DNA of 64,000 nucleotides from Candidatus Heteroscillospira sp. (GCA_050943935.1 JBMNQC010000004.1:107759-171758); one strand, 5' to 3'; counted from the first letter of the stretch, positions 18,533-47,915 are shown. The notes: a model not told the origin generated them from the letters alone. Program-made: numbers and translations.

Positions 18533-18790
18533 AAATTAAGAATGAATAGTGAAAAATGAAGAATTTTGCGCCTGCCGTAGAATCTGCTCCCCTAACAGGG
18601 GAGCTGTCAGCGAAGCTGACTGAAGGGTTTAACCTATCAAGTTAGCTTGGAACTGATTTGGAGGCTTAAACCCTTCCGCCCTCTGCGGAGGGCACCTCCC
18701 CTGTTAGGGGAGGGAAGTTTTTGGTACGGCGCGCCAGCACCACTACAATTATTTACTATTACTTCTTCACTATCCACTCCCCCATATACT
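18533..18790. repeat. intergenic mosaic repeat cluster 1 (unit 3 inverted, unit 2 inverted, degenerate unit 3)
   Basis: 18575-18713 is the reverse complement of the 47299-47437 / 47705-47840 unit. 18533-18568 is the reverse complement of the AT-rich ATTCTTC-type tail. Confidence 0.9.
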
Positions 18791-18792
18791 AC

Positions 18793-18824
18793 AAACAGCG
18801 GACGCCTTTTGGCGTCCGCTGTTT
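18793..18824. terminator. bidirectional intrinsic terminator
   Basis: AAACAGCGGACGCC-TTTT-GGCGTCCGCTGTTT, with A-run and T-run flanks. Lies 3 nt from the stop of the 18828 gene. Confidence 0.75.
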
Positions 18825-18827
18825 TAT

Positions 18828-19175
18828 TTACTGGAACAAATATTCGTCAAACTCAGGTGCTATAACCCGCGACGGGTCGGGCTCTGAAGGAGCAAACCGG
18901 CGGTATCTTATCCACATGATGAGCACCAGATACAGCGCGCCCAGCAGCCATATCATGGCCGAGGCGGCTATGATATACAGGAGCTTATCCCGTGTGCCGC
19001 TGAACTTTTCCCGGGCTCTCAGGGTATGTATGGCGGTGAACACAAGCGGCGCAATGAGCAGAAAGCCCACCGCCCATTCAAGAGTGAGCTGGCGGTTCAG
19101 GAAAAAAGCGATGAGCAGAACCGGATTTCGGATATTGGCGCTGAGCTGCCAGTAGCGTTTTCTTGTCTCTGCCAC
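18828..19175 (-). CDS. hypothetical small membrane protein
   Basis: 115 aa with about three hydrophobic helices. No recognisable family. Confidence 0.5.
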   Translation of the reverse strand: MAETRKRYWQLSANIRNPVLLIAFFLNRQLTLEWAVGFLLIAPLVFTAIHTLRAREKFSGTRDKLLYIIAASAMIWLLGALYLVLIMWIRYRRFAPSEPDPSRVIAPEFDEYLFQ

Positions 19176-19215
19176 AGTCGCCGCCCCCCTTTGTTTCTCC
19201 GCCTAAAATTATATG

Positions 19216-19650
19216 CTATCTTATGCCCGTTTCGTCCAGCAGCTCTGTAAATTCATTGCCTACAGAGAAGAACGTCATCTCGCCTATCCGCACAAAGTTT
19301 TCTCCAAAAGTGTAGGGCGGGCCGTTTTTTCCGTCTCCGTACACATAGATACCGTAAGTCCAGCCGCCTCGCGGGAAAAGCCGCCGCCACCAGAACATAT
19401 AGTGCACATGGTTAAGCCGGGACACCAGCTTATCCAGTTCTTCCCCTGTGTAGACTACGCTTTTCCCGCCGCCTTTGCACACCTCTATCTTCTCAACGGA
19501 GTCGTCCAGATGAAAGACATGAAAGGGCAGCTTCGAGGCGTTGGGGTCGGAAAAAGTCAAAACGATTGGCAGCAATAAATAGACGGCGCACAAAAGCAGC
19601 AAGAAGCACTTTACACGCCTGTTCTTCACTCCACCGCCCCCCTTTTGCAC
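19216..19650 (-). CDS. hypothetical N-terminally anchored/secreted protein
   Basis: 144 aa. Hydrophobic N-terminal segment CFLLLLCAVYLLLPIVL. No recognisable family. Confidence 0.5.
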   Translation of the reverse strand: MQKGGGGVKNRRVKCFLLLLCAVYLLLPIVLTFSDPNASKLPFHVFHLDDSVEKIEVCKGGGKSVVYTGEELDKLVSRLNHVHYMFWWRRLFPRGGWTYGIYVYGDGKNGPPYTFGENFVRIGEMTFFSVGNEFTELLDETGIR

Positions 19651-19734
19651 ATATTATACTATATTCTGCCGGACGCCGTCAATCATTTTACATATTTTGA
19701 CGTTGATTCCTGACGAATCGTAAGTAAAATGGAA

Positions 19735-20152
19735 GTCTGAACGGGGCGCAGCCTGAGGTGGGCGATAGTATCAGGTGAGCTTAACGCTGAACTCCACTGC
19801 CCAATTCCACCGACTCAGGCGCGATTCAGTCGGAACTCACACTTCGCCATTTGAGTAAGGTGAGCTTTAGCTCAGCTTACGGCCCATGGCGAACGGTCAG
19901 TTTCTTTGGCGGGCGACACCGTTTCTTTCTAAAAGAAATGGGGTCGCACACCGCAGCCCGCAGGCTGCGCCCTTGCACTTTCGTTTTGAATACGCTTCCA
20001 CCAAATTTGATAGCTTAAACCCTTCCGGCCCTGCGGGGCCACCTCCCCTGTTAGGGGAGGAAAAGAGAGCGCAGCCCCGACTCCTGTTAGGGGAGGAAAG
20101 AGTTAAATCGGCGCGAAGCGCCACCTAAATTATTCATTATTCATTCTTCACT
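19735..20152. repeat. intergenic mosaic repeat cluster 2 (half of the ~450-bp element, partial unit 2, unit 3)
   Basis: 19770-19975 aligns with 43488-43690 and 47460-47650. Hairpin GACACCGTTTCTTTCTAAAAGAAATGGGGTC at 19915-19945. GGCGCGAAGCGCC at 20110-20122, followed by the AT-rich tail. Confidence 0.9.
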
Positions 20153-20186
20153 AAAAACCGCCCCCTGTTTTCAGGGGGCGGTTTTT
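20153..20186 (-). terminator. intrinsic terminator of the fumarate hydratase alpha gene
   Basis: AAAAACCGCCCCCTG-TTTT-CAGGGGGCGGTTTTT, directly after the stop codon. Confidence 0.8.
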
Positions 20187-23427: not shown

Positions 23428-23445
23428 AGCTGTTGTTCCTTTAAT

Positions 23446-26786: not shown

Positions 26787-26809
26787 CTATCCTCGTCCTT
26801 CGGAAAAAC

Positions 26810-28664: not shown

Positions 28665-28752
28665 GCGGCTTTTACACAAAATTGCTTGACAAATTGCGTA
28701 AAAATGGTATCGTAATACCGTTAATAACAAATAATTCACGGAGGAATTCATT

Positions 28753-29331
28753 ATGTCTGAAAACACCGTCATCATCGAGGGCAGCGGCCGTCATATCCAC
28801 GTCACCCGCGAGCATCTGGATATTCTGTTCGGCAAGGGCTTCGAGCTGGACCAGAAGAAGATGCTCAGCCAGCCCGGCCAGTTTGCCACCAGCTGCAAGG
28901 TCACCGTCACCGGTCCCAAGGGCAGCCTGAAAATGTCCATCCTTGGCCCCTGCCGCAAGGAGACCCAGATTGAGCTGAGCTTTACCGACGCCCGCGCCAT
29001 AGGCCTGAGCTGCCCCGTACGCGAGAGCGGCGTGCTGGAAGGCACTCCCGGCTGCACCGTTGAGGGCCCCTGCGGCTCCGTTGAGCTGGAGCGCGGCTGC
29101 ATTATCGCCAAGCGCCACATCCACATGACTCCCGAGGATGCCGAGAAGTTCGGCGTTTCCGACAAGGAGATTGTTCAGGTCAAGGTCGGCGGCGAGCGCG
29201 CCCTCATCTTCGACGAGGTCATCTGCCGCGTCAGCCCCAGCTACGCCACCTTCATGCACGTTGACTACGATGAGATCAACGCCGCCTCTCTGTTTGGCAA
29301 GGATCCCACCGGCGTCATTGTAAAGAAATAA
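28753..29331 (+). CDS. pduL: phosphate propanoyl/acetyl-transferase PduL
   Basis: 192 aa. Duplicated PduL motif (GSGRHIHVTREHLDILFG and AKRHIHMTPEDAEKFG). Confidence 0.9.
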   Translation: MSENTVIIEGSGRHIHVTREHLDILFGKGFELDQKKMLSQPGQFATSCKVTVTGPKGSLKMSILGPCRKETQIELSFTDARAIGLSCPVRESGVLEGTPGCTVEGPCGSVELERGCIIAKRHIHMTPEDAEKFGVSDKEIVQVKVGGERALIFDEVICRVSPSYATFMHVDYDEINAASLFGKDPTGVIVKK

Positions 29332-29346
29332 GCAAACGCCCATCAC

Positions 29347-29382
29347 AGCCCGGAGAGAACTGTAATCTCTCCGGGCTTTTTT
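29347..29382 (+). terminator. intrinsic terminator of pduL
   Basis: AGCCCGGAGAGA-loop-TCTCTCCGGGCT followed by TTTTTT. Confidence 0.8.
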
Positions 29383-29394
29383 ACTTTTATTACA

Positions 29395-29888
29395 CAGGCT
29401 GTTGAACTTTCCGCGCAGGGCGGCTCCGAATTCGCTGAAAGCGTATTCGGAGCGTGCAGGGGCGCGCATTGCGCGCCCAGCTTTTACTTATTCGCCCGGG
29501 TGCGGCGGTGAAATCGATTCGTACTGCGGGGTCGGGTTCTGAAACCCATTTCTTTAAAGAAACGGGTTTCAAACTTCCCAAAGAACTTGCCTAGATCGAA
29601 TACTCTTTTGGGCCTCGCCGACGCGCACAACGCGCTCGTGCGTCGGTTACTGCAAGCCCTGGCCTGCGTCTTAGTGCAGTACTGTCAGGTGAGCTTTACG
29701 CTGAACTCTACTGCCCAATTCCATCGACTCAGGCGCGATTTGGTGGCACTACCACTTCGCCATTTGAATAAGGTGAGCTTTAGCACACTATAGTTCCCTC
29801 CTCGCGGCACAGCCGCTGCGGTCGGCGGCTAAAAACGTGCCACCGGCACGTTTTTTTAACGCCCCCGGTTATTCACTATTCACTAAAA
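29395..29888. repeat. intergenic mosaic repeat cluster 3 (5' two-thirds of the ~450-bp element + unit 3 remnant)
   Basis: Palindrome GGGGCGCGCATTGCGCGCCC at 29459-29478. Hairpin GAAACCCATTTCTTTAAAGAAACGGGTTTC at 29541-29570. 29571-29785 aligns with 43372-43585. Confidence 0.9.
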
Positions 29889-29895
29889 ACCACCC

Positions 29896-29903
29896 CCTGT
29901 TGG
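29896..29903 (+). repeat. left junction core CCTGTTGG (attL side)
   Basis: Identical octamer at 37480-37487. The left half-hairpin AAAAACCACCCCC precedes it. Confidence 0.7.
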
Positions 29904-30025
29904 CAGTCGTCCATAAAACAGGCAAATGAACAACACATCGTTTATGGGTGACTGTCATACGGGGTTAGGTGAATGAAATATGCTGGACATGGTTGAAATC
30001 AACCGTGTCCAGCATATTTTTTCGC

Positions 30026-30862
30026 TTATTTGTGTTTCCCTTTTCCGTGGGTCATGCTTGCTTTTCCCCGCTGGTTCATCGGATTTTTCAAGTGTTTGGA
30101 CAGCTTCAAAATCTCAATCAAGGTCACAAACTGCTCCATTGAGATGGCGTCATAGTCCACACCGTACTGCCGAAGAAAAATCCTTGCCCGCTTTTCATCG
30201 TCGCTGCCCTCATAGTTCATGGCCTCTTGCAGTTGCTTTTGGGCTTCAAGGGCAACGGATGGGGCGTCTGCCGTGGTAGTATCGTCCCGGTGAGCCTCCC
30301 GAATGTCACGGAGTATGGTCGTCAAATCCTCAGAGATCACATGACCGAAGTATTCATCCTCCCGCACCTGCGCCAGTTCCAAAGTCCGCAGATGCAGATC
30401 GTCAGCGTTTCCCTCCTGCTTCAACAGCACCATTTGACGGACAGATTCAAGAACAACGTTCATGTCGTTGATCCTCATATCCGCAATCCGATCCACGAAA
30501 ATCTCACCGTCCAGCATCATGCGCTGAAAATCCTTGTGGCATATAATTTCTGACAGCAGCCGCTTATTGAACTTTCCTTCTTTCAAAACATCAATCGCAT
30601 CATCACTCAAATGCAGAGCGTTCAACTCTGCGTTTGGGTGATTTTTTTGTTCCGTCATGCCCAGCAGATAATCCGTGGATACACTGTAGAACTTCGCCAG
30701 CGTCACGATAGCAAAGAGACTGATGTCCTTGAAATCGTCGTTTTCATATTTGCCCAGAGCCGACTTGGAAAGCCCGGTCTGCTCCGCAAGCTGTTCCAGC
30801 GTCAGTCTGCGCTCCACCCGCAAATCCTTCAATTTTTCCTGTATGGTTAAGGTCGTATTCAT
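30026..30862 (-). CDS. XRE-family HTH regulator with long C-terminal domain
   Basis: 278 aa. N-terminal HTH LTLEQLAEQTGLSKSALGKYEND. Confidence 0.8.
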   Translation of the reverse strand: MNTTLTIQEKLKDLRVERRLTLEQLAEQTGLSKSALGKYENDDFKDISLFAIVTLAKFYSVSTDYLLGMTEQKNHPNAELNALHLSDDAIDVLKEGKFNKRLLSEIICHKDFQRMMLDGEIFVDRIADMRINDMNVVLESVRQMVLLKQEGNADDLHLRTLELAQVREDEYFGHVISEDLTTILRDIREAHRDDTTTADAPSVALEAQKQLQEAMNYEGSDDEKRARIFLRQYGVDYDAISMEQFVTLIEILKLSKHLKNPMNQRGKASMTHGKGKHK

Positions 30863-30987
30863 ACCGTGTCCCCCTTGCGCCCGTTGGTATTGTTCGTTAT
30901 TTCCATTATATCACAGCTTGTCCATAAGCGTGGAAATATTCGCTTTTGGATGCCAATTTCCGACCTTTTGGATATACGGGAACGGTC

Positions 30988-31016
30988 ATATATTTTCGCT
31001 AAAATGTAATTGTCAA
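30988..31016 (-). promoter_or_regulatory. putative promoter of the XRE gene
   Basis: Minus strand: TTGACA (complement of 31011-31016), 17-nt spacer, ATATAT (complement of 30988-30993). Flanked by the 9/10 inverted repeat ACGGTCATAT / ACATGACCGT. Confidence 0.45.
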
Positions 31017-31526
31017 CAGACATTGCAGCTTGAAAACCACATGACCGTCCGAATGAGATATGCCGACTGGTGAAGCACCGCCAAGACCTTACCTCTGGTC
31101 ACCGTGACCAGAGGTGACTTCGGGACAAATTGTCCCAAAGCTAAGAGCGTGCCAAGGCCGGGGATACGCCGGGGTGAGATTCCCGGGCAGGAACGACGTT
31201 CGGGAAGAACGGCACTTAAAAATGCAACTCAAAATCAAGCCATGTGAAATCAGCGAACATTCCGCAATCTGAGTATTGCTAACCACACCAAAGAGCGTTG
31301 CGCCGAACAGCGCACACGGTACGGCATCCGGCGTGGATGTTCGCCGTTTCGCATGACTTCACACAAAACTGTGAAACCGAAAGACCGCCCTACTGGACAG
31401 GGCATCATGGGCGGCAATCTGAGCGGAAATTCACTTTCAGAAAAACAACGCTCCACAGCGAACAGAGCTTGCCGTTGGGCATATCCGGTTCACTGCGGAG
31501 ACTACGAAAAAAGGATGATTTTCAGT

Positions 31527-32370
<844 letters not shown>

Positions 32371-32388
32371 AGGGGGGGGATTTACAGG

Positions 32389-32404
32389 AATGTGTACCTT
32401 TCTG
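32389..32404 (+). repeat. inverted repeat, left arm (AATGTGTACCTTTCTG)
   Basis: Exact reverse complement of 32523-32538. Confidence 0.9.
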
Positions 32405-32522
32405 TAAATCATCACAGAAATTTAAACACAGTTATTATAGCACAACGCAACAAGATTTTCTATATAAAAATGGCGAAATCATTCACGATTTAGTGAACAG
32501 GAAAATGTGCGTTTTCACCTTG

Positions 32523-32538
32523 CAGAAAGGTACACATT
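32523..32538 (-). repeat. inverted repeat, right arm (CAGAAAGGTACACATT)
   Basis: Exact reverse complement of 32389-32404. Ends 21 nt before the ATG at 32559. Confidence 0.9.
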
Positions 32539-32558
32539 TTTGTTGGGGGACATGCACC

Positions 32559-33338: not shown

Positions 33339-33398
33339 AAAGCAAGCCTGCTGAATTTACAATTCGGAGGACTAAAACAAAAGGAGAGGAAATGAATT

Positions 33399-33572: not shown

Positions 33573-33585
33573 GGGGGCGTGAAAC

Positions 33586-34839
33586 GTGGCTGCAAAGTGT
33601 GATTTGTGCGGTGGCGCACTTATTATGGGCGCCGACGGCCAAAGCGCCACATGCAAAACCTGCGGGATGGAGTATTCTGTTGAACGGGTGCGGGAACTGA
33701 TGGCCTTGGATACAGTTGCGGTGGCCCCCCAAGCCGACAGGCAGGAGCAAGCGACGACGTGCGTGCTGTTCGATGACTATCATGCGGTGCTACTGGAGTT
33801 GTTTGAAGAGCACACAGGCATCTCTGCGGCGGATATGTCGCTTGATGAAGAGGAATTGGAACACGCTGTATTCGACATGATCCCTCTTGCATCAAAAGTC
33901 TCGACAATCGACTTTGGGGATTATGCTATTATAGCGACGACAAAGGGCGTGATGACCAAAGTGCTGGATGCAGCCATGCGCAAAACGCTCTCCCGTTATA
34001 AAAAGGGACAGAGAGGTGCAAAGCTTTGGTGCCGCATATTCCTTTCTACACATTATAGAGACGAATTTATCCAGTTTGTTTTACCAGACAATGTGCTTTG
34101 GGAGGTCTCAGGGCTTTCAGAAGGGACACTGGAACAGGCCGTGGCCGAGCTGCAGCAGGAGCTCCCCTTCGGAATTGCGCTAAAGGGGCGAAACGATATC
34201 GTGCAGAATACCGCGCCGACGCCCGCATTGCAGGAAGATGTGCTTGAAGCGACCTGGGAGGAAACTTCAGATGCCGATGTTGCTGCCCAACCACCAGAAA
34301 TGTTTCATATGACAGGCAAATGCGAGTATTACGGTTCTGTAATCAGAGGGGAGGAATCAAGCGCAAATTTTGATGTGGTAAAAGCTATTGCGTTATGTGA
34401 AAAAGCTGACGCAGCCTATAATAGAAATAGCATAGGCAAAGCAATAAGTTACCTCGAAGAGGCCTTGAGATATGATGCGGACAATTATATAGTATGGAAC
34501 AAATTGGGTAGAGCTTATAGGGCATTAAGCTATCTGGACGAAGCAAGAAAGTGTTACCAAAAGGCACTTGAAATAAAACCTGGTGCTATTGATGTGATTG
34601 CAAATATTGGGGTTCTCGAGTTTTCATGTAATAATTATCAGCTTGCGTATCAATATTGCAAACAAGCTTTTGAAGTAGGAGGAGCAACACGAGCAGATAA
34701 CGCAGTATACGCAGCGAACTACGCCATGATGATAGCTAAAATTGGAGATAAGGAAGAAGCTCTTAGAGTATTAGAAATAGCACGAAAAAGAGGGTATCGC
34801 AATTACACTACACTCAAAAGAATGATAAGACAAAACTAA
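33586..34839 (+). CDS. hypothetical zinc-ribbon / TPR-repeat protein
   Basis: 417 aa (GTG start). N-terminal CDLCGG...CKTCGMEY zinc ribbon. C-terminal TPR-like repeats (AISYLEEALRYDADNYIVWNKLGRAYRALSYLDEARKCYQKALEIKP...). Confidence 0.65.
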   Translation: MAAKCDLCGGALIMGADGQSATCKTCGMEYSVERVRELMALDTVAVAPQADRQEQATTCVLFDDYHAVLLELFEEHTGISAADMSLDEEELEHAVFDMIPLASKVSTIDFGDYAIIATTKGVMTKVLDAAMRKTLSRYKKGQRGAKLWCRIFLSTHYRDEFIQFVLPDNVLWEVSGLSEGTLEQAVAELQQELPFGIALKGRNDIVQNTAPTPALQEDVLEATWEETSDADVAAQPPEMFHMTGKCEYYGSVIRGEESSANFDVVKAIALCEKADAAYNRNSIGKAISYLEEALRYDADNYIVWNKLGRAYRALSYLDEARKCYQKALEIKPGAIDVIANIGVLEFSCNNYQLAYQYCKQAFEVGGATRADNAVYAANYAMMIAKIGDKEEALRVLEIARKRGYRNYTTLKRMIRQN

Positions 34840-34849
34840 ATAAAAAAAC

Positions 34850-34893
34850 AAGCCAAAAGCGGCCAACCGTAACAAGTTGGTTTCTTTTGGCTT
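34850..34893 (+). terminator. intrinsic terminator after the TPR gene
   Basis: AAGCCAAAAG...CTTTTGGCTT hairpin, followed by a T-rich stretch. Confidence 0.6.
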
Positions 34894-34984
34894 ACTTATT
34901 TTTAAGAAGAGGCACCGCCATGAGGCTAAAATCAGCACCGATGTCAAGCCCAATTGAGATGTAGAAACGTCGTTCGTTTCTCAT
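34892..34984 (-). pseudogene. 30-codon stub of a RuvC/DEDD-type (IS110-like?) transposase N-terminus
   Basis: Hand translation MRNERRFYISIGLDIGADFSLMAVPLLKNK*, with GAAGGA 7 nt upstream. The IGLDIG motif resembles the first catalytic-Asp motif of RuvC-like/DEDD enzymes. Confidence 0.35.
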
Positions 34985-35178
34985 ATTCTATCCTTCTTCC
35001 CGTTAATGGTTACAGGGATTTCTTTTTGAAATAGTGTGATATATCCTCGTACGGAATCCCGAAATAGACAAATAGACCCCAACCGGCCAAATCATGAAAC
35101 ATAACTGTGGGGATAGACTGATCTCAGTATGATTTCATGACTGGCTTTTGTCGATGAGAGCCTGTTGCCCAGAAGGCT

Positions 35179-35472
35179 TTGCCAGTGAAGCTGTCTTTAT
35201 CCCTTAGTGTAATTATACTAAGGGCGCACTTCTATCTGGCCCGCCGGGAATTGAAACCCTATCTGGAGGAGGGCGGCAAGCTGCCTGTGGCCCAATGGGA
35301 GGCAGAGCGTACCCGGCTGAAACAGGAGTATGCGGCGGAGAGCGAGGCATACAAGCCCATTCTTGCCGATTTGAAAAGCTTGCGGCAAATCCAGTACGCC
35401 GTCGATAGCGCCCGCCATGAGCAGGAGCGCAGCGAACAGGCGCAGAACCGAAAATACGAACAGGAACGATGA
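35179..35472 (+). pseudogene. probable C-terminal remnant of a mobilisation/relaxase gene
   Basis: The coding-like part starts just after the hairpin CCCTTAGTGTAATTATACTAAGGG. A Glu/Arg/Gln-rich coiled tail sits upstream of the TnpW-like gene, as in clostridial Tn4451-like elements. Confidence 0.35.
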
Positions 35473-35487
35473 AAGGAGAAACCGACT

Positions 35488-37424
<1,937 letters not shown>

Positions 37425-37479
37425 CCCAAAGGCCATGCCATTCCCTGTTAAATACGGATTACTGTTTTATTAGCCGCCG

Positions 37480-37487
37480 CCTGTTGG
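37480..37487 (+). repeat. right junction core CCTGTTGG (attR side)
   Basis: Identical to 29896-29903. Followed by GGGGGTGGTTTTTT, which complements AAAAACCACCCCC at 29886-29898. Confidence 0.7.
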
Positions 37488-37502
37488 GGGTGGTTTTTTC
37501 AT

Positions 37503-37935: not shown

Positions 37936-38451
37936 TTAAGCCGCGGCCACCAGGCCGTGCTTTTTAAGGGACCTGCTGAGCTGAACCAGAACGGGGATGA
38001 CCACCAGCTCGGCTATCATGCAGGCTATACCCTGGGGCATGCGGATACCAAGCTGAACCCAGAAGGGGCTGCCGTACATGAGGGAGAGGGCGCCGGTGGT
38101 GATGAGCATGCTGCACAGAAAGCTGCCGGCGGCTGCAAACACCACGTCGGGGAAGAAGCGGACGTTTTCCCGGTGCAGGAACAGGCCGTAAAAGAAGCCG
38201 CAGACCATAACGGACAGGGTGATGCCGGGGTTGATGCTGCCGTAGAAAACAGACGCGCCTATGCAGTCGGCCACGCCGTAGGCCACGGCAGTCCACACAG
38301 GCCCGAACAGCAGGCCGCACATGGCCATAGGCACGAAGCCGAAGCCTATACGCAGGCTGTCGGTGTTGATGGAGCACAGGCGGCTGAGCACCAGCTGCAG
38401 GGCAATGAGCATGGAAATTTGAGTGAGCATTCTCACGTTCATTTTTTTCAT
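37936..38451 (-). CDS. folT: folate ECF transporter S component
   Basis: 171 aa polytopic protein (…LSRLCSINTDSLRIGFGFVPMAM…). Preceded by a THF riboswitch and next to folC. Confidence 0.8.
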   Translation of the reverse strand: MKKMNVRMLTQISMLIALQLVLSRLCSINTDSLRIGFGFVPMAMCGLLFGPVWTAVAYGVADCIGASVFYGSINPGITLSVMVCGFFYGLFLHRENVRFFPDVVFAAAGSFLCSMLITTGALSLMYGSPFWVQLGIRMPQGIACMIAELVVIPVLVQLSRSLKKHGLVAAA

Positions 38452-38532
38452 TATTCAATTCTCCTTTCGCGTTTTACCACGATCAATTCTGATGTGCCAC
38501 GAAAGGAGAACTTACAGGACTCTCCTCCGGTG

Positions 38533-38650
38533 GCAGCGGATGCGGATACGGCACCGCAGCGTCATTCCGGTGCGACCAACACCGGCAAGGGCTTTCGTCC
38601 GGCGGCAACTTCCCATCCGCCGACACTTAACGCGCCGTTCCTACTCTGTC
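38533..38650 (-). promoter_or_regulatory. THF (tetrahydrofolate) riboswitch
   Basis: Minus strand reads CAGAGUAGGAACGGCGCGUUAAGUGUCGGCGGAUGGGAAGUUGCCGCCGGACGAAAGCC...CGCAUCCGCUG. This matches the conserved AGAGUAG / CGCGUUAAGUG / GGAUGGGA / CAUCCGCU blocks of the folT motif. Confidence 0.75.
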
Positions 38651-40124: not shown

Positions 40125-40715
40125 TGCGCTCCGCACCTGCCGTAGAATCCGCAGAGCGCTAATTCAGAACTTGTAGAAGCGCGCATTGCGCGCCCGCAGG
40201 GAGAACGTGGCGCAGCCTGCGGTGGGCGGTGTGCGACCCCATTTCTTTCAAAAGAAACGGTGTCGCCCGCCAAAGAAACTGACCGTTCGCCATGGGCCAT
40301 AAGCTGAGCCTGCGGCTCACCTTATTCAAATGGCGAAGGGTGAGTTCCGACTTAATTGCGCCTGAGTCGGTGGAATTGGGCAGTAAGTTTCAGCATAAAG
40401 CTCACCTGTTACTCTTGCACCAAGACGCAGGCCAGAGCTTACATCTACCGCCGCACGAGCGCGTTGTGCGCGTCGGCGAGGCCCAAAAGAGTATTCGATT
40501 TAGGCAAGTTCTTTGGGAAGTCTGAAACCCGTTTCTTTAAAGAAATGGGTTTCAGAACACGACCCCCGCCCGCCGCAGACTGCGCCACGTGCTCTAATGT
40601 CAACTCACATGGGCGCGCATTGCGCGCCCCTGCACGCTCTGAATTTGACCTCAGCAAATTTGAAAGCTTAAACCCTTCCGCCCCTTGCAAAGGTCACCTA
40701 CCCTGTTAGAGGAGG
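40125..40715. repeat. intergenic mosaic repeat cluster 4 (full ~450-bp element, inverted orientation, + partial unit 2)
   Basis: Terminal palindromes at 40179-40193 and 40611-40629. Hairpins at 40235-40264 and 40524-40553. The reverse complement aligns end to end with 43262-43730. Confidence 0.9.
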
Positions 40716-40777
40716 AGATTATCGCGCACGCAGGAAAAAGATGGTTACAATATTATATAAAAATCCGCAAAAACCTG

Positions 40778-40941: not shown

Positions 40942-41103
40942 ATGGCTGTTGGCGCTAGAGTCAAAGTTACCCTGAGATGCAGCGAGTGCAAGCAGAGAAA
41001 CTACAATACTATGAAGAACAAGAAGAACACCCCTGACCGTCTTGAACTCAAGAAGTATTGCCCCTTCTGCCGCAAGCACACAGTGCATAATGAAACGAAG
41101 TAA
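40942..41103 (+). CDS. rpmG: 50S ribosomal protein L33
   Basis: 53 aa. [63 protein letters not shown]. Confidence 0.95.
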
Positions 41104-41127
41104 GGCTTTCAGAAAGGATGCGTAAAA

Positions 41128-41412
41128 ATGGCTGAAGAAAAGAAGACCACCGCTCCCGCATACGACAAGGTGGATCGCGCCGCCGTGAAGAAAGTCGACA
41201 GTAATGAAAAGCTCGGATTTTTCCAGCGTACCAAGAAATGGTTCCGGGAAATGAAGAGCGAGCTGAAGAAGGTCGTATGGCCCACCCGTCAGCAGACGCT
41301 GAACAACACCGGCGTCGCCCTGCTGGTCATGGCAGTCTCTGCGGTAGTGATCTGGGGATTTGATCAGATCGCACAGAACGCAGTTCAGGCTCTCATCAAG
41401 CTCGTAGGTTAA
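41128..41412 (+). CDS. secE: preprotein translocase subunit SecE
   Basis: 94 aa. ELKKVVWPTRQQT plus a single C-terminal TM helix. Confidence 0.9.
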   Translation: MAEEKKTTAPAYDKVDRAAVKKVDSNEKLGFFQRTKKWFREMKSELKKVVWPTRQQTLNNTGVALLVMAVSAVVIWGFDQIAQNAVQALIKLVG

Positions 41413-41418
41413 TCTGCC

Positions 41419-41943
41419 ATGGCAGGAAATGCTAAATGGTATGTGGTTCACACATACTCCGGTTATGAAAATGCCGTTGCCGCCGCGATTCTCAAGGCGG
41501 CCGAAAATCGTAAAATGCAGGATCTCATCCTGGAGGTAAACATCCCTCTGGAGACCGTTGTGGAGCACACCGACACCGGCGACAAGGAAGTTGAGCGCAA
41601 GGTGTTCCCCGGCTATGTGCTTGTGAAAATGGTCATGACCGACGAGAGCTGGTATCTGGTGCGCAACGTGCGCGGCGCTACCGGATTTGTCGGAAGCGAC
41701 GGAGATCCCATCCCTCTCACCGAACAGGAAATTCTGGACATGGGCGTTGAGCGCCGGGAGTACAAGCTCGGCTTCGACGTTGGCGATAAGGTCAAGGTCA
41801 TTGACGGCCCCCTGGATGGCTTCTTCGGCATCGTGGACGAGCTGGACCCCGACAAGGGCATGGTCCGCGTTGTTGTTTCCATGTTCGGCAGAGAGAACCT
41901 CGTCGACTTTGAGCTCGACCAGGTAGAACCCGTAACAGAATAA
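41419..41943 (+). CDS. nusG: transcription termination/antitermination factor NusG
   Basis: 174 aa. [17 protein letters not shown] domain and a KOW C-terminus. Confidence 0.95.
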
Positions 41944-41959
41944 TAGGAGGTGCTTTACA

Positions 41960-42388
41960 TTGGCACAGAAAGTAGTTGGATACGTTAGATTCCAGGTTCC
42001 CGCAGGCAAGGCGACTCCCGCCCCCCCTGTAGGTCCCGCACTCGGTCAGTACGGCGTCAACATTGCTCAGTTCACCAAGGACTTCAATGAGCGCACCAAG
42101 GGCGACATGGGCATGATGATTCCCGTTGTCATCACCGTTTACGCCGACCGCAGCTTTACCTTTATCACCAAGACTCCCCCCACCGCCCTTCTCGTCAAGA
42201 AGGCCTGCGGTATAGAGACTGCCTCCGGCGTGCCCCAGCGCGACAAGGTCGCCACTCTCAGCCGCGAGGATCTCCGCAGAATCGCCGAGCAGAAGATGCC
42301 CGACCTCAACTGCAGCGATATCGAGGCCGCTATGAGCATGGTGGCCGGCACCTGCCGCAGCATGGGCATTCTCGTCGCCGCCGAGTAA
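41960..42388 (+). CDS. rplK: 50S ribosomal protein L11
   Basis: 142 aa (TTG start). [17 protein letters not shown]. Confidence 0.95.
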
Positions 42389-42492
42389 AAAGCGGCTCTT
42401 GGGGCGGGGACTTCATTTCCCCTGCCTGAACGTGGGAGGATATGCCCCCGGGGCAGTCATCCGACGAACCACAATACAAGGAGGAAATCAAA

Positions 42493-43179
42493 TTGTTCAG
42501 AGGTAAGAATTACAAAGAGAGCGCAAAGCTCATAGATAAGCAGGCACTCTACGATTCCGCCGAGGCTTTCGACCTGGTCATTAAGGCCAGCAAGGCCAAG
42601 TTCGACGAGACCGTTGAGCTGCACGTCAAGCTGGGCGTCGATTCCCGCCACGCCGACCAGCAGGTCCGCGGCGCCATCGTCCTGCCCCACGGCACCGGCA
42701 AAACCGTCCGCGTGCTGGTGTTCTGCAAGCCCGAGCGCGAGGAAGAGGCCAAGGCAGCCGGTGCTGATTACGCCGGCGGCATGGAGCTGGTTGAGAAGAT
42801 CCAGAAGGAAAACTGGTTCGAGTTCGACACCGTCATCGCTTCTCCCGACATGATGGGCGTTGTTGGCCGTCTCGGTAAGGTCCTGGGCCCCAAGGGTCTG
42901 ATGCCCTCTCCCAAGGCCGGCACCGTCACCCCCAACATTGCCAACGCTGTCACCGAAGCCAAGGCCGGTAAGATCGAGTATCGTCTCGACAAGACCAACA
43001 TCATCCACTGCCCCATCGGCAAGGTCTCCTTCGGCGCTGAGAAGCTGAATGAGAACTACAACGCTCTGCTGGGCGCCATCATCAAGGCCAAGCCCGCAGC
43101 CGCCAAGGGCCAGTACATCCGCTCCTGCGTCACCGCATCCACCATGGGCCCCGGTGTGAAGATCAACGCAAAGATCTAA
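42493..43179 (+). CDS. rplA: 50S ribosomal protein L1
   Basis: TTG start giving (M)[15 protein letters not shown], after AAGGAGGAAA. The rest is typical L1. Confidence 0.9.
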
Positions 43180-43190
43180 GTGATTTTCAA

Positions 43191-43219
43191 AAAGACCGCT
43201 TCATACGAAGCGGTCTTTT
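43191..43219 (+). terminator. intrinsic terminator after rplA
   Basis: AAAGACCGCTTC-ATAC-GAAGCGGTCTTTT. Confidence 0.8.
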
Positions 43220-43225
43220 CCTTTT

Positions 43226-43845
43226 GCAGCCGAATTTGCAGAAAACTCATTCGAAGCGTTCAGGGGCACGCATTGCGGTGGGCGCATACTTATTCGCCAG
43301 GTATGGCTGTGAAACCGGCCTGTACCGCGGGGTCGTGATATGAAACCCATTTCTTTAAAGAAACGGGTTTCAGACTTCCCAAAGAATCTGCCTATGTCGA
43401 ATACTCTTTTGGGCCTCGCCGACGCGCACAACGCGCTCGTGCGGCGGTTGCTGCAAGCCTTGGCCTACGTCTAAATGCAGTGCTGTCAGGTGAGCTTTAT
43501 GCTGAACTCTACTGCCCAATTCCACCGACTCAGGCGCGACTGACACCGCACTCACCCTTCGCCATTTGAGTAAGGTGAGCTTTAGCTCAGCTTACGGCCC
43601 ATGGCGAACCGGTAAGTTTCTTTGGCGGGCGACACCGTTTCTTTTAAAAGAAATGGGGTCGCTCACCGCAATCCGCAGACTGCGCCACGTTCTCCCGCTG
43701 CGGATATCGCGGGCGCGCAATGCGCGCCCCTACACGGATGATGCTGTAACGGCAACCCCTCCCCTCGCCTCCCCTTACGCAGGGGAGGCGGGGGGAGGCC
43801 TCAGTCAGCTTCGCTGACAGCTCCCTTTGCACAAGGGAGCCTTTG
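43226..43845. repeat. intergenic mosaic repeat cluster 5 (full ~450-bp element, forward, + degenerate unit 2)
   Basis: Degenerate terminal palindrome at about 43262-43285 and intact GGGCGCGCAATGCGCGCCCC at 43711-43730. Hairpins at 43342-43371 and 43631-43660. Confidence 0.9.
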
Positions 43846-43872
43846 TGGGCCATCTGCACTTATCCATACAAG

Positions 43873-43911
43873 AAAAGCCCTGGCATCTGATAGACAGACA
43901 CCAGGGCTTTT
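43873..43911 (-). terminator. intrinsic (bidirectional-looking) terminator after the ACP gene
   Basis: AAAAGCCCTGG-loop-CCAGGGCTTTT. Confidence 0.7.
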
Positions 43912-43913
43912 TG

Positions 43914-44141
43914 CTATTTTTTCACGCTCTCTATGAGAGCCACCAGTTGACCGACGGTGCGGATATCCTGCATAGCCCGGGCCGTGGGCGGCAGCGAAAA
44001 TTCTTCTTCCACCAGGACAACCAGTTCGGCCAGGTCGACAGAGTCGACGCCGAGGTCTGCGATGATATCGGTGCCGGCGGTTATATCGCCGCTGACATCC
44101 AGCTGGGAACGGATCAGTTCACATACCCGTTCAAAGATCAT
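43914..44141 (-). CDS. acyl carrier protein-like (phosphopantetheine attachment DSV motif)
   Basis: 75 aa. ...IIADLGVDSVDLAELVVLVEEEF... Confidence 0.75.
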   Translation of the reverse strand: MIFERVCELIRSQLDVSGDITAGTDIIADLGVDSVDLAELVVLVEEEFSLPPTARAMQDIRTVGQLVALIESVKK

Positions 44142-44161
44142 CTGTATTCCCCCTGTTTAAT

Positions 44162-44830
44162 TCAGCTCCACTCCCGGACGGCGGGCTTGCTCTTCTTTGG
44201 CTCCGGGCGGACGTAGGACACCACCACGCGGCGGTTTGGCTCGGTGCCGGTAGAGCTGGTGGTCACGCCCTCAAAGTCCTGCAGGGCTGTGTGGATAACA
44301 TGGCGCTCATAGCTGTTCATGGGCTCGAGAGCCATGCTGCGGCGGTACTTGACCACCTTGGCGGCCATTTTCTCGGCCAGGTGGACCAGGGAGTCCTCAC
44401 GCTTGGAGCGGTAGTTCTCTGCGTCCACATTGATGTAGAGGCGCTTTTCGGCGCCGCGGTTCACGGCGTAGTTGGTGAGGTGCTGGATGGCGTCCAGAGT
44501 CTCGCCCCGGCGGCCGATGATGACGCCCATGCTGTCGCCGGTGAGGGTGACGTTCAGGCCCTTTTCACGCTCGGTAATGGTGATATCAGCATCGGCGCCC
44601 ATGTGCCGGAGCAGGCCGCGGATAAAAGTCTCGACCTTTTCCCTCTGGGATTCGGTCTTTTCGTAGCTGACCTTAATTACGGCAGGAGATGCGCCCAGCC
44701 CGAGAAAGCCGGATTTTGCGCGCTCGATTATCTCCACGTTTACCTCGTCGCGCTCCATCCCCAACTGTTTGAGAGCTGCAGCAATAGCCTCATCCTCAGT
44801 CTTGCCGGTTACTTGGATAGATTCTATCAT
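44162..44830 (-). CDS. jag: Jag/KhpB RNA-binding protein (Jag_N, KH, R3H)
   Basis: 222 aa. C-terminal R3H block LEPMNSYERHVIHTAL. Sits downstream of yidC. Confidence 0.9.
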   Translation of the reverse strand: MIESIQVTGKTEDEAIAAALKQLGMERDEVNVEIIERAKSGFLGLGASPAVIKVSYEKTESQREKVETFIRGLLRHMGADADITITEREKGLNVTLTGDSMGVIIGRRGETLDAIQHLTNYAVNRGAEKRLYINVDAENYRSKREDSLVHLAEKMAAKVVKYRRSMALEPMNSYERHVIHTALQDFEGVTTSSTGTEPNRRVVVSYVRPEPKKSKPAVREWS

Positions 44831-44844
44831 AGGTTATACTCCCG

Positions 44845-46107
44845 TTATTCTTCTTCGGCGGGGGCGGCAGTTTCGACAGCGTCGCAGACGCTCTCTGTCT
44901 GTTCATCCTCAACATCGCCGATGTTATCGACGTCGGACACCTCTCCCGCATAGCCGTAGCGGTCAGAGACATATGCTCTGCCTCGGGCATAGCGGCGTGA
45001 ACCCACCTGGGATTCGGGCTTTTTATCCTCAGGCAGTCCTGATGCCGCGCGTTCGGCGGCGCGCTCTGCGGCGCGGCGCTCTGCCTCGCGGGTACGGGCC
45101 TTGGCGTCCAGCTTGCGCTTGCTGGTGTTTTTGTTGCTCAGTATCTCGCCCTCGGCTTTTCTGCGCTCGGCCTCCTCGCGCTTACGCTCCGCCTCGGCCA
45201 TGCGGGCCTCAATACGTGCATTGCGCTCGGCAGCCTCAGCATCCAGCACCTTTTTGAAATGGCTGTTCAGAATGATCTCCTGGATGATGGCGAAAACGCT
45301 GTTGGCTATCCAGTATACACCCATGGCCGCAGGCATAATAAAGCCGATGTAAGCAGACATAAGCGGCATCATAATATTCATGCTGCGCATCATGCCCGCC
45401 TGCTCGGGAGCGGCGGCGGTCTGAGCGCTGCTGCTGACCTTCATGGTGAGCCAGGACAGGAAAGCGGAGACGAAGGGGATGAGGAACAGCCCCAGGGCGG
45501 GAGCCCAGCTCTCGGCAAGGGACCAGTCCACCTGGCTGAAGAAGTTCAGCTTGGGAAAATCGCACAGGTTCATACCCAGGAACTCGAAGTTGAGGTCAAG
45601 CAGGCCGGGAGCCACAGTCTTGAGCTCCTCGAAGTGTGCTCCAACATGCTTGGCCATCTCCAGCTCGCCGTAAACGCCGCCGGATAGTGTCACACCGTAT
45701 TCGCCGAGCTTTTCGGCAATAGCGGAGATCTCATCCTGGCTCAGGCGCATAACGTGGGTCAGCGGGGAGCGGACAACGCTGTAGAGCGCGATGAGTATGG
45801 GAAATGGAATGAGAGTCCAGAGACAACCCGACATGGGGTTAATCTTCTCTTCCTGATACAGCTTGGACACTTCCATTTGATATTTCTGCTTGTTGCCGCC
45901 ATGCTTTTTCTCCAGCTCCTTGAGCATAGGAGTCAAGCTGCTCATGCGCATCATGCTGCGCTTGCTTTTGAGCTGGAAAGGCAGGAGAACGAGCTTTACA
46001 ACCAGGGCGAACAGAATAATGGCGACGCCGAAATTCTGCACCGGCTCATAAAGCTTCAGCAGCAGCCACGAAAAGGGCACGGTTATAATGGACATTGAAT
46101 TCTCCAA
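44845..46107 (-). CDS. yidC: membrane protein insertase YidC with long charged C-terminal tail
   Basis: 420 aa. YidC/Oxa1 core (…QLKSKRSMMRMSSLTPMLKELEKK…MMPLMS…) followed by a roughly 130-aa Glu/Arg/Ala-rich tail. Confidence 0.9.
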   Translation of the reverse strand: MENSMSIITVPFSWLLLKLYEPVQNFGVAIILFALVVKLVLLPFQLKSKRSMMRMSSLTPMLKELEKKHGGNKQKYQMEVSKLYQEEKINPMSGCLWTLIPFPILIALYSVVRSPLTHVMRLSQDEISAIAEKLGEYGVTLSGGVYGELEMAKHVGAHFEELKTVAPGLLDLNFEFLGMNLCDFPKLNFFSQVDWSLAESWAPALGLFLIPFVSAFLSWLTMKVSSSAQTAAAPEQAGMMRSMNIMMPLMSAYIGFIMPAAMGVYWIANSVFAIIQEIILNSHFKKVLDAEAAERNARIEARMAEAERKREEAERRKAEGEILSNKNTSKRKLDAKARTREAERRAAERAAERAASGLPEDKKPESQVGSRRYARGRAYVSDRYGYAGEVSDVDNIGDVEDEQTESVCDAVETAAPAEEE

Positions 46108-46122
46108 TCTGTCTTGCTGTCC

Positions 46123-46344
46123 TTATGGGACAGGATCGTAAAAATCGTGGTTCTTGTCCCTGTGAAAGGGATGGCACTTGCTCAGGCGCTTGAGGGTGAG
46201 CCACAGGCCCTTTTTAGCGCCGTATTTTTCCAGAGCCTCCAGGGCGTACTCCGAACAGGTAGGCACGAAGCGGCAGGAGGGCGGAAAAAGGGGGGAGATG
46301 GCGCGGCGGTAAAACCGAACCAGAGCTATAAGCACAGCTTTCAC
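46123..46344 (-). CDS. yidD: membrane protein insertion efficiency factor YidD
   Basis: 73 aa. [27 protein letters not shown]. Confidence 0.95.
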
Positions 46345-46709
46345 TTTTCCACCCGCTTTTCCGCATCCGACAGCAGGCCCAGCCTGGAACAGGCGGCCAG
46401 ATAGGCCTCATCCAGCTGGCGGTATTCGGCCGTGCGGCTGCGCATACGGGCCACAACTATGATGTCGTAACCCTGCTTCAGCTTATCCGCATTCAGCCGG
46501 TAGATCTCTCTGAACCGGCGGCGAATACGGTTGCGCTCTACGGCCTTGCCCATCTTTGCTGTTACGGTTATACCCAGGCGGTTGTGGTCGCGGCGTGTTT
46601 TCCGGCAGTATACCACCAGAAAGGGCGTCGCGGCGCTTTTGCCTTTGGAGTACAGGCGGCGGAACTCATAATTATTCTTGATTGAAACAGATGATTTCAG
46701 CTTCCTCAC
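46341..46709 (-). CDS. rnpA: ribonuclease P protein component
   Basis: 122 aa. ...[24 protein letters not shown]... Confidence 0.9.
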
Positions 46710-46749
46710 CCCGCAACGGCATTTGGGGGAACTCTCTCCCCGGACGAAA

Positions 46750-46884
46750 TTAGTAGCTCAGCTGAGCTCTGCCCTTTGCTCTGCGGCGGGCGAGGACCTT
46801 GCGGCCGTTCTTGGTGGCCATTCTCTTGCGGAAGCCGTGCACCTTCTGGCGCTGACGCTTCTTGGGCTGATAGGTACGAAGCAT
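46750..46884 (-). CDS. rpmH: 50S ribosomal protein L34 (not in the ORF track; hand-translated)
   Basis: Minus strand gives [51 protein letters not shown] lies upstream. Confidence 0.95.
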
Positions 46885-47021
46885 GTGTTACACCTCCTTG
46901 CAGTGTTCTGGGGCATGAGATTCAAAGCCCCGACAATACTCAACATCGGCCTTTGGCCGAAGTAGTTGACCTGTGCTTTTTGGGCATAATTCGCCCATGG
47001 GCGCAAACGCGCTTAGGATAC

Positions 47022-47051
47022 ATTTTACCCCATATTCACCTAACCTGTCAA
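47022..47051 (-). promoter_or_regulatory. sigma-A type promoter for rpmH-rnpA-yidD-yidC-jag
   Basis: Minus strand: TTGACA (complement of 47046-47051), 18-nt spacer, TAAAAT (complement of 47022-47027). Confidence 0.55.
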
Positions 47052-47084
47052 TGTTTTTTTCATTACAGGCCATTCTTTTCACCC

Positions 47085-47915
47085 ATGGGCACATTGCGCG
47101 CCCCTGTACTTATGCGCCCGGGTGCGGCGGTGAAATCGATTCGTACTGCGGGGTCGTGATATGAAACCCATTTCTTTAAAGAAACGGGTTTCAAACTTCC
47201 CAAAGAATCTGCCTAAGTCGAATACTCTTTTGGGCCTCGCCGACGCGCACAACGCGCTCGTGCGGTGGTGGATGTTAGCCTGCCGTGCCCCGGCTTTTCC
47301 TCCCCTAACAGGGGAGGTGCCCTCCGCAGAGGGCGGAAGGGTTTAAGCCTCCGAATTTGCTCTGAGCTGACTTGATAGGTTAAACCCTTCAGTCAGCTTC
47401 GCTGACAGCTCCCCTGTTAGGGGAGCGGATTCTACGGTAGTGTGGAGTGTTGGGGTGTGCTTAATGCTGAAACCTACTGCCCGATTCCATCGATTCAGGC
47501 GCGATTTGGTGGCACTACCACTTCGCCATTTGAGTAAGGTGAGCCGAAGGCTCAGCTTACGGACATTGGCGAACCGTAAGTTTCTTTGGCGGGCGACACC
47601 GTTTCTTTTGAAAGAAATGGGGTCGCACACCGCCCACCGCAGGCTGCGCCCCGTTCTCTCTGCGGACATCGTGGGCGCGCAATGCGCGCCCCTACACGTC
47701 AAAGCCTCCCCTGAGTAAGGGGAGGTGGCCCCGCAGGGCCGGAAGGGTTTAAGCCTCCGAATTTGCTCTGAGCTGACTTGATAGGTTAAACCCTTCAGTC
47801 GCTCCGCGACAGCTCCCCTGTTAGGGGAGCGGATTCTAGGGAGGTATGGAAAAAATTTTCAATCGGCGCGAAGCGCCACATCAATTCTTCATTCTTCACT
47901 ATTCATTCTTCATTA
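47085..47915. repeat. intergenic mosaic repeat cluster 6 (~450-bp element with nested unit 2, second unit 2, unit 3)
   Basis: Terminal palindromes at 47087-47104 (degenerate) and 47673-47692. Hairpins at 47163-47192 and 47595-47624. Unit 2 at 47299-47437 and 47705-47840. GGCGCGAAGCGCC at 47865-47877, then the ATTCTTC-type tail at 47883-47914. Confidence 0.9.

Follow-up and report, generated by a model that had tools for sequence, protein, structure and literature searches.

What kind of repeat occupies the space between genes in this stretch of a Candidatus Heteroscillospira sp. genome (JBMNQC010000004.1:107759-171758), and how did it get there? We analysed 64 kb, called the window below, and results given for the window refer to this whole stretch. 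Six hairpin-dense clusters lie in it between positions 18533 and 47915. Our favoured reading, to which we give a probability of roughly 0.7, is that they are mosaics resembling bacterial interspersed mosaic elements (BIMEs), made of non-coding, non-autonomous palindromic DNA repeats of the class of repetitive extragenic palindromes (REPs), BIMEs and REPINs (REP doublets forming hairpins), with an enzyme that we infer. We observed an anatomy of three kinds, one element (B) nested in another (A), truncation at hairpin loops, hairpins kept despite sequence change, and unit-sized gains and losses elsewhere. REPs, BIMEs and REPINs are well studied in Gammaproteobacteria and, to our knowledge, hardly described in Clostridia. 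Here such repeats fill a third of the local intergenic space in a gut Oscillospiraceae chromosome. The interest rests on the B unit, which crosses phyla, and on its placement, rather than on the six clusters as such.

Six intergenic clusters

An earlier note on this DNA had listed near-identical modules recurring in six intervals and had treated them as a single repeat family. Every listed module is visible on reading, with 4-7 copies where dinucleotide-preserving shuffles of the window give 0-0.05. The 38-mer CTTTTGGGCC...CTCGTGCG occurs four times, always identical (expected 0.00), CTCCCCTGTTAGGGGAG seven times at up to two mismatches (expected 0.03) and GGGCGCGCAWTGCGCGCCC five times at up to three (expected 0.05). 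According to the repeat finder, repeats of up to 252 nt with 87-93% identity, some direct and some inverted, connect the clusters; among them are repeats of 243 nt in three copies, 252 nt inverted (87%) and 168 nt inverted (88%). When the clusters were compared with the whole window by blastn-short, no further copies were found. The single family did not survive this analysis, as there are at least three distinct elements (A, B and a tail) plus solitary hairpins. Their shuffled, nested arrangement in both orientations was borne out: hairpins run both ways, a B lies within an A at 47273-47440 and copies are truncated at hairpin loops.

The clusters are as follows.

18533-18790: cluster 1, between a DnaC-like gene and a convergent small open reading frame (ORF)
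19735-20152: cluster 2, downstream of fumarate hydratase
29395-29888: cluster 3, downstream of pduL
40125-40715: cluster 4, between divergent folC and rpmG
43226-43845: cluster 5, between convergent rplA and jag
47085-47915: cluster 6, between divergent rpmH and a gene of unknown function

Together they sum to 3,212 nt, or 5% of the window. They make up about 32% of its roughly 9.9 kb of non-coding DNA, in agreement with the sizeable intergenic share claimed earlier. The intergenic location also stands. The main called ORFs avoid the clusters, which are overlapped only by small ORFs of 40-120 aa that are presumably spurious and by an ORF of 265 aa (28672-29469, minus strand). Four clusters lie at gene 3' ends and two (40125-40715 and 47085-47915) lie between gene starts.

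The earlier note had raised the possibility of assembly artefacts (collapsed or duplicated contig ends); we also considered sequencing artefacts and chimeric joins. The genome of the window is absent from the searched collections, where exact look-ups of its L1 ORF, perhaps with a wrong start codon, and of L34 found nothing, so there is no independent assembly to compare it with. Nevertheless, the copies diverge by 7-15% (85-93% identity rather than 100%) and have unique flanks, each cluster sits between different intact housekeeping genes (Pfam), and hundreds of independent assemblies, as well as finished replicons of cultured strains, contain related units. Because the copies differ and sit between different intact genes, we do not find an artefact credible.

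Element A

Element A is a foldback element of 460-610 nt. Its ends are inverted palindromes with a GTAG or GCAG head, GTAG-GGGCGCGC-ATT-GCGCGCCC, which is the REP format. The termini form a 19-nt palindrome, GGGCGCGCA(A/T)TGCGCGCCC (9+9), present in five copies at up to three mismatches and in one degenerate copy, all intergenic. All heads face outward: GTAG three times (40173 and, as reverse complement, 43733 and 47695), GCAG twice (29456 and, as reverse complement, 40633) and a degenerate TCAG once. The outer ~135 nt of the arms are inverted repeats at 60-63% identity, compared with 48% (maximum 54%) in shuffles. The inverted arms are imperfect and ~120 nt long, and each has a near-perfect AT-centred palindrome (GAAACCCATTTCTTTAAAGAAACGGGTTTC or GACACCGTTTCTTTTAAAAGAAATGGGGTC) followed by CCAAAGAA or TTCTTTGG. 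They enclose an interior of ~430 nt with the invariant 38-mer and more hairpins. In the alignment, some of these interior hairpins reshape compatibly between copies (GAGC-TTTA-GCTC versus GAGCC-GAA/GCA-GGCTC). The copies in the window are listed below.

19739-19975, plus strand: A2, a short variant corresponding to the right half of A, without hairpin 1 and the 38-mer core (alignments, repeat families); bounded by inverted copies of the module GAACGGGGCGCAGCCTG(A/C)GGTGGGCG
29421-29787, plus strand: A3, truncated; left arm hairpin, GCAG-GGGCGCGCATTGCGCGCCC at 29456-29478, hairpin 1 and the 38-mer core; stops in the loop of the GGTGAGC hairpin
40173-40633, minus strand: A4, full; GTAG-AAGCGCGCATTGCGCGCCC at 40173-40195 and GGGCGCGCATTGCGCGCCC-CTGC at 40611-40633; arms are 63% inverted repeats; recognised by inverted repeats of 213-252 nt at 87-91%
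43260-43733, plus strand: A5, full; left palindrome degenerate, right palindrome GGGCGCGCAATGCGCGCCC-CTAC at 43711-43733
47087-47695, plus strand: A6, full but interrupted by B6; left part to ~47272, right part from ~47441, right palindrome plus head at 47673-47695

Without 47273-47440, A6 can be aligned over its whole length with A4 and A5, which indicates that B6 was inserted into an A element. The fold of A5 has a z-score of about -6 on either strand; A folds equally well on both since it is palindromic. In the predicted structure, a closing helix would join the inverted outward-facing palindromes. We found no promoter inside A common to the copies and no promoter or terminator signals of its own.

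Since each arm ends in an outward-facing, headed GC palindrome, A can be read as a REP doublet, REPIN-like, with a long interior. Published REPs associated with REP-associated tyrosine transposases (RAYTs) likewise have GTAGG followed by a palindrome, e.g. GTAGGGTGGGTCTTGACCCACC (PMC2817692). Palindromes of the form GTAG-GGGC(N4-6)-loop-(N4-6)GCCC also occur in Vescimonas fastidiosa and a dozen gut contigs, where the stems vary in sequence and remain complementary. In related contigs they often form outward-facing inverted pairs 77-242 nt apart. Judged by its sequence, A would be an oversized doublet of this GTAG-GGGC REP class, which is common in gut Oscillospiraceae. One gut contig (L059, 4899-5138) has an outward-facing pair of GTAG palindromes enclosing a complete B-type element, so the two classes are combined outside the window too.

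Element B and the tails

Element B is ~170 nt long and BIME-like. Two inverted two-hairpin units flank a long central hairpin, GAAGGGTTTAA...TTAAACCCTTC, and the ends are inverted copies of ~45 nt. The unit has the format [CTCCCC-loop-GGGGAG]-(C/G)-[second hairpin, usually with a GNA three-base loop]-GA-RRGG, and seven units were parsed in the window. A type-1 unit, GGGGAG-C-TGTCAGC-GAA-GCTGACT-GA-AGGG, is paired in inverted orientation with a type-2 unit, GGGGAG-G-TGCCCTC-CGCA-GAGGGCG-GA-AGGG, across a linker hairpin of 55 nt. The second hairpins thus differ within one B: GTCAGC-GAA-GCTGAC versus GCCCTC-CGCA-GAGGGC or GGCCC-CGCA-GGGCC. The RNAalifold consensus predicts a four-way junction, or alternatively a structure in which the two end hairpins pair with each other. 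B1 and B6 form a 168-nt inverted repeat at 88% identity. In the consensus fold, B7 has two base pairs in which both partners have changed.

The third element, the tail, is a G-free, AT-rich run of ATTCTTC-like heptads, usually preceded by the mini-hairpin GGCGC-GAA-GCGCC. Tails lie at the outer edges of cluster 1 (on both sides, inverted) and of clusters 2, 3 and 6. The B elements, fragments and tails are listed below.

18534-18565, minus strand: tail, G-free on this strand; begins 5 nt beyond the DnaC-like gene (stop codon); complementary at 94% to 47883-47914, another tail
18572-18739, minus strand: B1, full; type-1 unit at 18587-18627 (plus), the central hairpin, type-2 unit at 18671-18712 (minus)
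18722-18775, plus strand: GC palindrome (GGCGCGCC) then AT-rich tail; inverted relative to 18534-18565, with a 60-85% match to 20103-20150 and 47858-47905
19982-20065, plus strand: right half of B; half of the central hairpin and a type-2 unit at 20020-20059 (minus)
20069-20152, plus strand: extra hairpin CTCC-TGTTA-GGGGAG, GGCGC-GAA-GCGCC and heptad tail; abuts the fumarate hydratase terminator
29869-29886, plus strand: short AT-rich tail, beside the ruvX terminator that is split by an island
40133-40150, plus strand: terminal fragment of B, CTGCCGTAGAATCCGC; the motif also occurs at 18572-18589 and, as reverse complement, at 47425-47440
40635-40716, plus strand: degenerate right half of B (CTACCCTGTTAGAGGAG) (repeat families)
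43764-43841, minus strand: hairpin CCTCCCC-TTACGCA-GGGGAGG, then a solitary type-1-like B unit (CCTCAGTCAGCTTCGCTGACAGCTCCC-TTTGCACAA-GGGAGCC) (unit architecture)
47273-47440, plus strand: B6, nested in A6; units at 47300-47341 (plus) and 47385-47425 (minus)
47703-47841, plus strand: B7; altered hairpins that still pair (loop TGAGTAA; stems GGCCC/GGGCC and GTCGC/GCGAC)
47858-47914, plus strand: GGCGC-GAA-GCGCC then ATTCTTC heptad tail (repeat family)

In other organisms, different short tandem repeats adjoin B-type units at three metagenome loci (L121, L122 and L011), namely CAGCTAT heptads, the 14-mer GCAGGCCGCAGTTC and CTGAGC hexamers, and they recall the ATTCTTC tails of the clusters. The type-2 units read GCCACCTCCCC...GGGGAGGTGGC at 18696-18712, 20036-20059, 47300-47322 and many other loci, with high-GC variants GATCCACCTCCCCC. 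They contain CACCTCC, which matches the 3' end of 16S rRNA (anti-Shine-Dalgarno), and the complement GGAGGTG is a strong Shine-Dalgarno sequence. This likeness may be a coincidence, or it may be relevant to ribosomes terminating just upstream.

The B unit in other phyla

The earlier note had named confinement of the copies to the window as a ground for doubt. Element A was not found elsewhere in the collections searched; the B unit, by contrast, is widespread. At least 120 metagenome contigs, sampled from human gut, soil, rhizosphere and freshwater, contain its exact 26-mer, GGGGAGCTGTCAGCGAAGCTGACTGA. Among the matches listed, the GC content of the contigs ranges from 36 to 72% and the context is constant, with GCTCCCC-loop before the 26-mer and GGGG after it. 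At 86-93% identity, the unit is present in finished replicons of Vescimonas fastidiosa (Oscillospiraceae), of three Rhizobium strains and of three Deinococcus species. With a full B-type query, matches of 72-89% identity were obtained in replicons of Sphingomonas, Pleomorphomonas, Chelatococcus and a Hyphomicrobiales bacterium, and the last three matches are to the other half of the element. One Rhizobium replicon unit, ATCTCCCCC-TTGA-GGGGGAGAT GCCAGCGAAGCTGAC AGAGGGGG, is nearly identical to the type-1 B unit of the window; it may overlap with the published RIME1 (Rhizobium-specific intergenic mosaic element).

We then looked at 90 units from other loci, which were picked by their anchors alone and whose second hairpin is unlike the searched one. 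The second hairpin has at least 5 bp of Watson-Crick pairing in 57% of them, compared with 2.9% of shuffles. Thus, it is conserved as a structure and not as a sequence. GNA makes up 35 of the 42 three-base loops, mostly as GAA, GCA and GTA. C-GNA-G loops, e.g. d(GCGAAGC), form unusually stable DNA mini-hairpins. This hints at a possible single-stranded DNA stage. Full B elements have ends that evolve in concert: of 29 full B-type elements, 9 have end loops that are exact reverse complements (0.7 expected; at most 4 in 1,000 permutations), and in several more the loops are one base off.

The placement of the type-1 unit with respect to genes is not random. In 47 of 77 occurrences, an open frame of 90 codons or more that runs in the same direction stops no more than 120 nt upstream of it. 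The median distance from stop codon to unit is 17 nt, and in 26 of the 47 the unit begins 0-19 nt past the stop codon. Distances on the other side of the unit are evenly spread. Near-identity in three phyla at a fixed distance past stop codons is unexpected for selfish repeats.

Could the repeats have spread by their function in RNA and not by mobility? The units, and perhaps A as a structured RNA of ~470 nt, would then be selected cis-acting structures in 3' untranslated regions (UTRs) or leaders, or RNA genes. The strong folding (z about -6), the stem changes on both sides within hairpins, the type-1 unit 0-19 nt past stop codons with its orientation fixed relative to the upstream gene, and the 26-nt sequence conserved across phyla would fit this explanation. 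In addition, Bradyrhizobium transcribes REP-type elements that lie in 3' UTRs (PMC5082802). However, both strands fold equally well, the elements being palindromes, and in a palindrome template switching can also produce paired changes in the absence of selection. Copies of A point either way relative to the neighbouring genes, some lie in divergent promoter regions, and A lacks its own promoter and terminator signals. The nesting, truncation and shuffling of copies resemble the decay of mobile DNA rather than maintained genes, and Rfam gave no match, even below threshold. As a general explanation we consider RNA function quite improbable. For A, an RNA gene or cis-acting RNA is unlikely given its two orientations, the missing promoter and the decay-like truncation. 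For the B unit, an RNA gene or a cis-acting RNA function is possible; its fixed position past stop codons and its conservation across phyla call for an explanation.

A known RNA family was also considered and rejected. The clusters had no Rfam match at gathering score and chance-level matches only at E up to 5, and Rfam gave no matches on 20 loci with B-type elements. The earlier note did not recognise the family, and it is without a name in Rfam and in the literature, where full-text sequence searches did not find these repeats in print.

Gain and loss of units

Gain or loss of a whole unit was seen between near-identical contigs, for example L031 compared with L051 and L074 with L088. The overlaps at the indel junctions of the strain comparisons are 0, 7 and 14 nt, and the 14- and 7-nt ones fall inside the GAGGGGA motif of the repeat itself. 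This points to slippage or recombination between shared motifs. In Deinococcus and Rhizobium, the B units are single or paired in the opposite order.

These observations bear on the possibility that A and B are classical miniature inverted-repeat transposable elements (MITEs), i.e. deletion derivatives of an insertion sequence (IS) of the DDE type that are moved in trans via their terminal inverted repeats and leave target-site duplications. Both elements have terminal inverted repeats (~120 nt in A, ~45 nt in B) and are under 600 nt, B is nested in A, inverted AT-rich tails bound cluster 1, and one of the strain indels (L031 versus L051) is flanked by an imperfect 14-nt direct duplication. 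However, this kind of duplication overlaps the conserved motif of the repeat, so that slippage or recombination fits better, and a target-site duplication is not definable at the junction of B in A. Neither a parent IS nor a DDE transposase turned up, whether in the window or among the 0.78 Mb of loci that were fetched. Units that are often single or in opposite pairing order behave as REPs and BIMEs do. Furthermore, the stems vary and yet stay paired while the GNA loops are kept, which a DDE enzyme binding duplex DNA would not need. We therefore regard classical DDE MITEs as improbable, and as less likely than repeats of the REP/BIME/REPIN class. IS200/IS605-derived palindrome-associated elements, which carry subterminal hairpins, lack terminal inverted repeats and insert 3' of a fixed tetra- or pentanucleotide, were rejected as well: A and B have clear inverted termini, and a constant flanking tetranucleotide was not seen.

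Mobility and known relatives

If the clusters are REP/BIME/REPIN-class mosaics, their copies would reach new intergenic sites through an enzyme that acts on single-stranded DNA, recognises hairpins and is encoded elsewhere in the genome. For the GTAG palindromes, a RAYT or another transposase of the HUH/Y1 type would be the obvious candidate. Recombination and replication slippage between shared motifs (GGGGAG/CTCCCC and the GC mini-hairpins) could then shuffle, nest and truncate the copies. Once in place, the hairpins probably act on transcripts, by blocking 3' exonucleases or by interfering with terminating ribosomes; the short fixed distance of the B unit past stop codons makes such a role probable.

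The mosaics share several features with the REPs and BIMEs of Enterobacteria and Pseudomonas, which are linked to RAYT/TnpA-REP. They are extragenic GC-rich imperfect palindromes, three of the six ends of A carry the hallmark 5' GTAG, the units are single or in alternating pairs of two types joined by linkers, and most of the mosaics lie at the 3' ends of genes. Enterobacterial REPs, too, include hairpins with apices of the GCGAAGC type (PMC2817692). B itself combines what defines a BIME, namely two unit types, inverted orientation, a linker and mosaics. The mosaic reading proposed by the earlier note (BOX, REP, BIME or MITE type) is thus upheld, with A termini largely in the REP format and B built like a BIME. 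The differences are the Clostridia host, the double hairpin of the B unit without GTAG, its presence in three phyla, and the lack of a RAYT in the window, the fetched loci and the Vescimonas replicon.

REPINs, as Bertels and Rainey reportedly described them in 2011, are two inverted REPs that form one foldback unit whose arms evolve in a correlated way. The correlated arms of A, the correlated end loops of B-type elements and the smaller GTAG doublets 77-242 nt apart are similar to this. A differs by its interior of ~430 nt, which has its own nested hairpins and the invariant 38-mer. The RIMEs, Sm-repeats and Br-REPs of Alphaproteobacteria are also intergenic multi-palindrome mosaics in 3' UTRs and of unknown function (PMC2573895, PMC5082802); the sequences of Br-REP1 and Br-REP2 differ from the B unit. 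BOX, RUP and SPRITE of pneumococcus, the Correia elements and other bacterial MITEs are likewise short and modular; they form hairpins and lie between genes in either orientation, sometimes nested. They have no sequence similarity to ours, and no parent IS or defined target duplication was found here.

Several results weigh against REP-class repeats. The earlier note had proposed looking for a transposase of the RAYT, IS200-IS605 or other type, and none turned up in the window: Pfam found no Y1/RAYT or DDE transposase among ~50 ORFs, which are housekeeping genes apart from a serine-recombinase island. In tblastn searches, neither IS200 TnpA (with a hand-typed query sequence) nor E. coli RayT had a match to the window or to the fetched loci, which total ~0.78 Mb. 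Since no candidate was found, the mobilising enzyme is pure inference. Two of the clusters occupy divergent promoter regions and not 3' UTRs. The B unit has a double hairpin and no GTAG head, unlike canonical REPs, and the 430-nt interior of A is several times longer than known REPIN spacers. Moreover, REP families are normally specific to a genus or species, and a purely selfish, lineage-bound model explains poorly a B unit that is near-identical in three phyla.

The search for an enzyme was extended beyond the window. Group 1 RAYTs have been reported in Clostridia (PMC5581495). Our RayT search of PLSDB gave no match in Oscillospiraceae, and a RAYT/IS200-type gene was also not found in the Vescimonas replicon. 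When the 2,737 ORFs of 120 loci with the B 26-mer were compared with one another, no recurrent transposase-like neighbour family emerged.

We tentatively propose, as a possible though not a probable explanation, that the B unit belongs to one very widespread REP-like system of Bacillota, Pseudomonadota and Deinococcota, of which the rhizobial mosaics and others would be local faces. Its sequence, including the exact 26-mer, would be held nearly constant by a conserved partner, which could be a domesticated HUH-type enzyme or a factor binding RNA or single-stranded DNA. The units would be placed deliberately ~10-20 nt past stop codons to act on terminating ribosomes or on mRNA 3' ends. The 26-mer is a concrete handle for finding the protein that recognises it.

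Distribution of element A

Beyond the window, A was not found in GTDB genomes, JGI metagenomes, IMG/VR, PLSDB or 5.8 billion proteins. Hairpin 1 of A had no match in IMG/VR or in the JGI metagenomes, the 26-mer of its core had none in IMG/VR, and blastn of A gave none in PLSDB. An ORF of 117 aa that runs through A has no homologue among the 5.8 billion proteins. Only a diverged hairpin 2 was detected, in two other contigs: one from a relative (L008, fetched via its L1 gene) and one from a metagenome (L126). From these sequence searches, A appears to be a new, lineage-restricted element.

A 22-mer from the core of A had four matches among 185,579 GTDB representative genomes. They lie in unrelated high-GC metagenome-assembled genomes and were rejected as chance, because these genomes have none of the other modules.

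Genomic setting

The host belongs to gut-type Clostridia, Oscillospiraceae. Genuine homologues of its ribosomal protein L1 are 86-93% identical, one of them labelled as coming from Oscillospiraceae, and the best true homologue is 93% identical. In relatives that share the flanking genes, the intergenic DNA does not align with that of the window.

The order rplK-rplA-rplJ-rplL is found in relatives (L005 and L008). In the window, rplA is followed by cluster 5 and then by an oppositely oriented jag-yidC-rnpA-rpmH block, and rpmH is not adjacent to dnaA. This block is bracketed by direct copies of A (clusters 5 and 6), and the rpmG-rplA block is bracketed by inverted copies (clusters 4 and 5). 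Since the repeats are located where gene order departs from that of relatives, they may drive rearrangements. The differences at 40957-46884 are compatible with repeat-mediated rearrangement and, by correlation only, suggest it. These repeats will also confuse gene callers and assemblers of gut metagenomes.

Another relative, whose L1 is 91% identical, likewise lacks rplJ after rplA (L006, 10690-11044; L007, 2660-3021). The stretch that replaces rplJ is non-coding and just as dense in hairpins, with at least 8 GC hairpins, which differ from the window repeats and show no sequence similarity to them. The top-scoring L1 "homologues" (P0001-P0011, 294-364 aa) have an internal duplication of ~100-130 residues that mixes two alleles. 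These are most likely chimeric metagenome assemblies and not real proteins.

A low-GC island of ~7.6 kb (29885-37499, 43-53% GC) adjoins cluster 3. It contains a helix-turn-helix gene, a small resolvase (31669-32370), a TPR protein and a large serine recombinase (35624-37210). Apart from the two serine recombinases of this unrelated island, the window has no transposase. The island interrupts the ruvX terminator hairpin AAAAACCACCCCC-TGTT-GGGGGTGGTTTTT, and CTGTTGG is present at both junctions (29897-29903 and 37480-37486). Beside folC, a THF riboswitch (Rfam RF01831, 71 bits) is found at 38532-38650 on the minus strand, upstream of the S component of an ECF transporter (37936-38451), probably folT.

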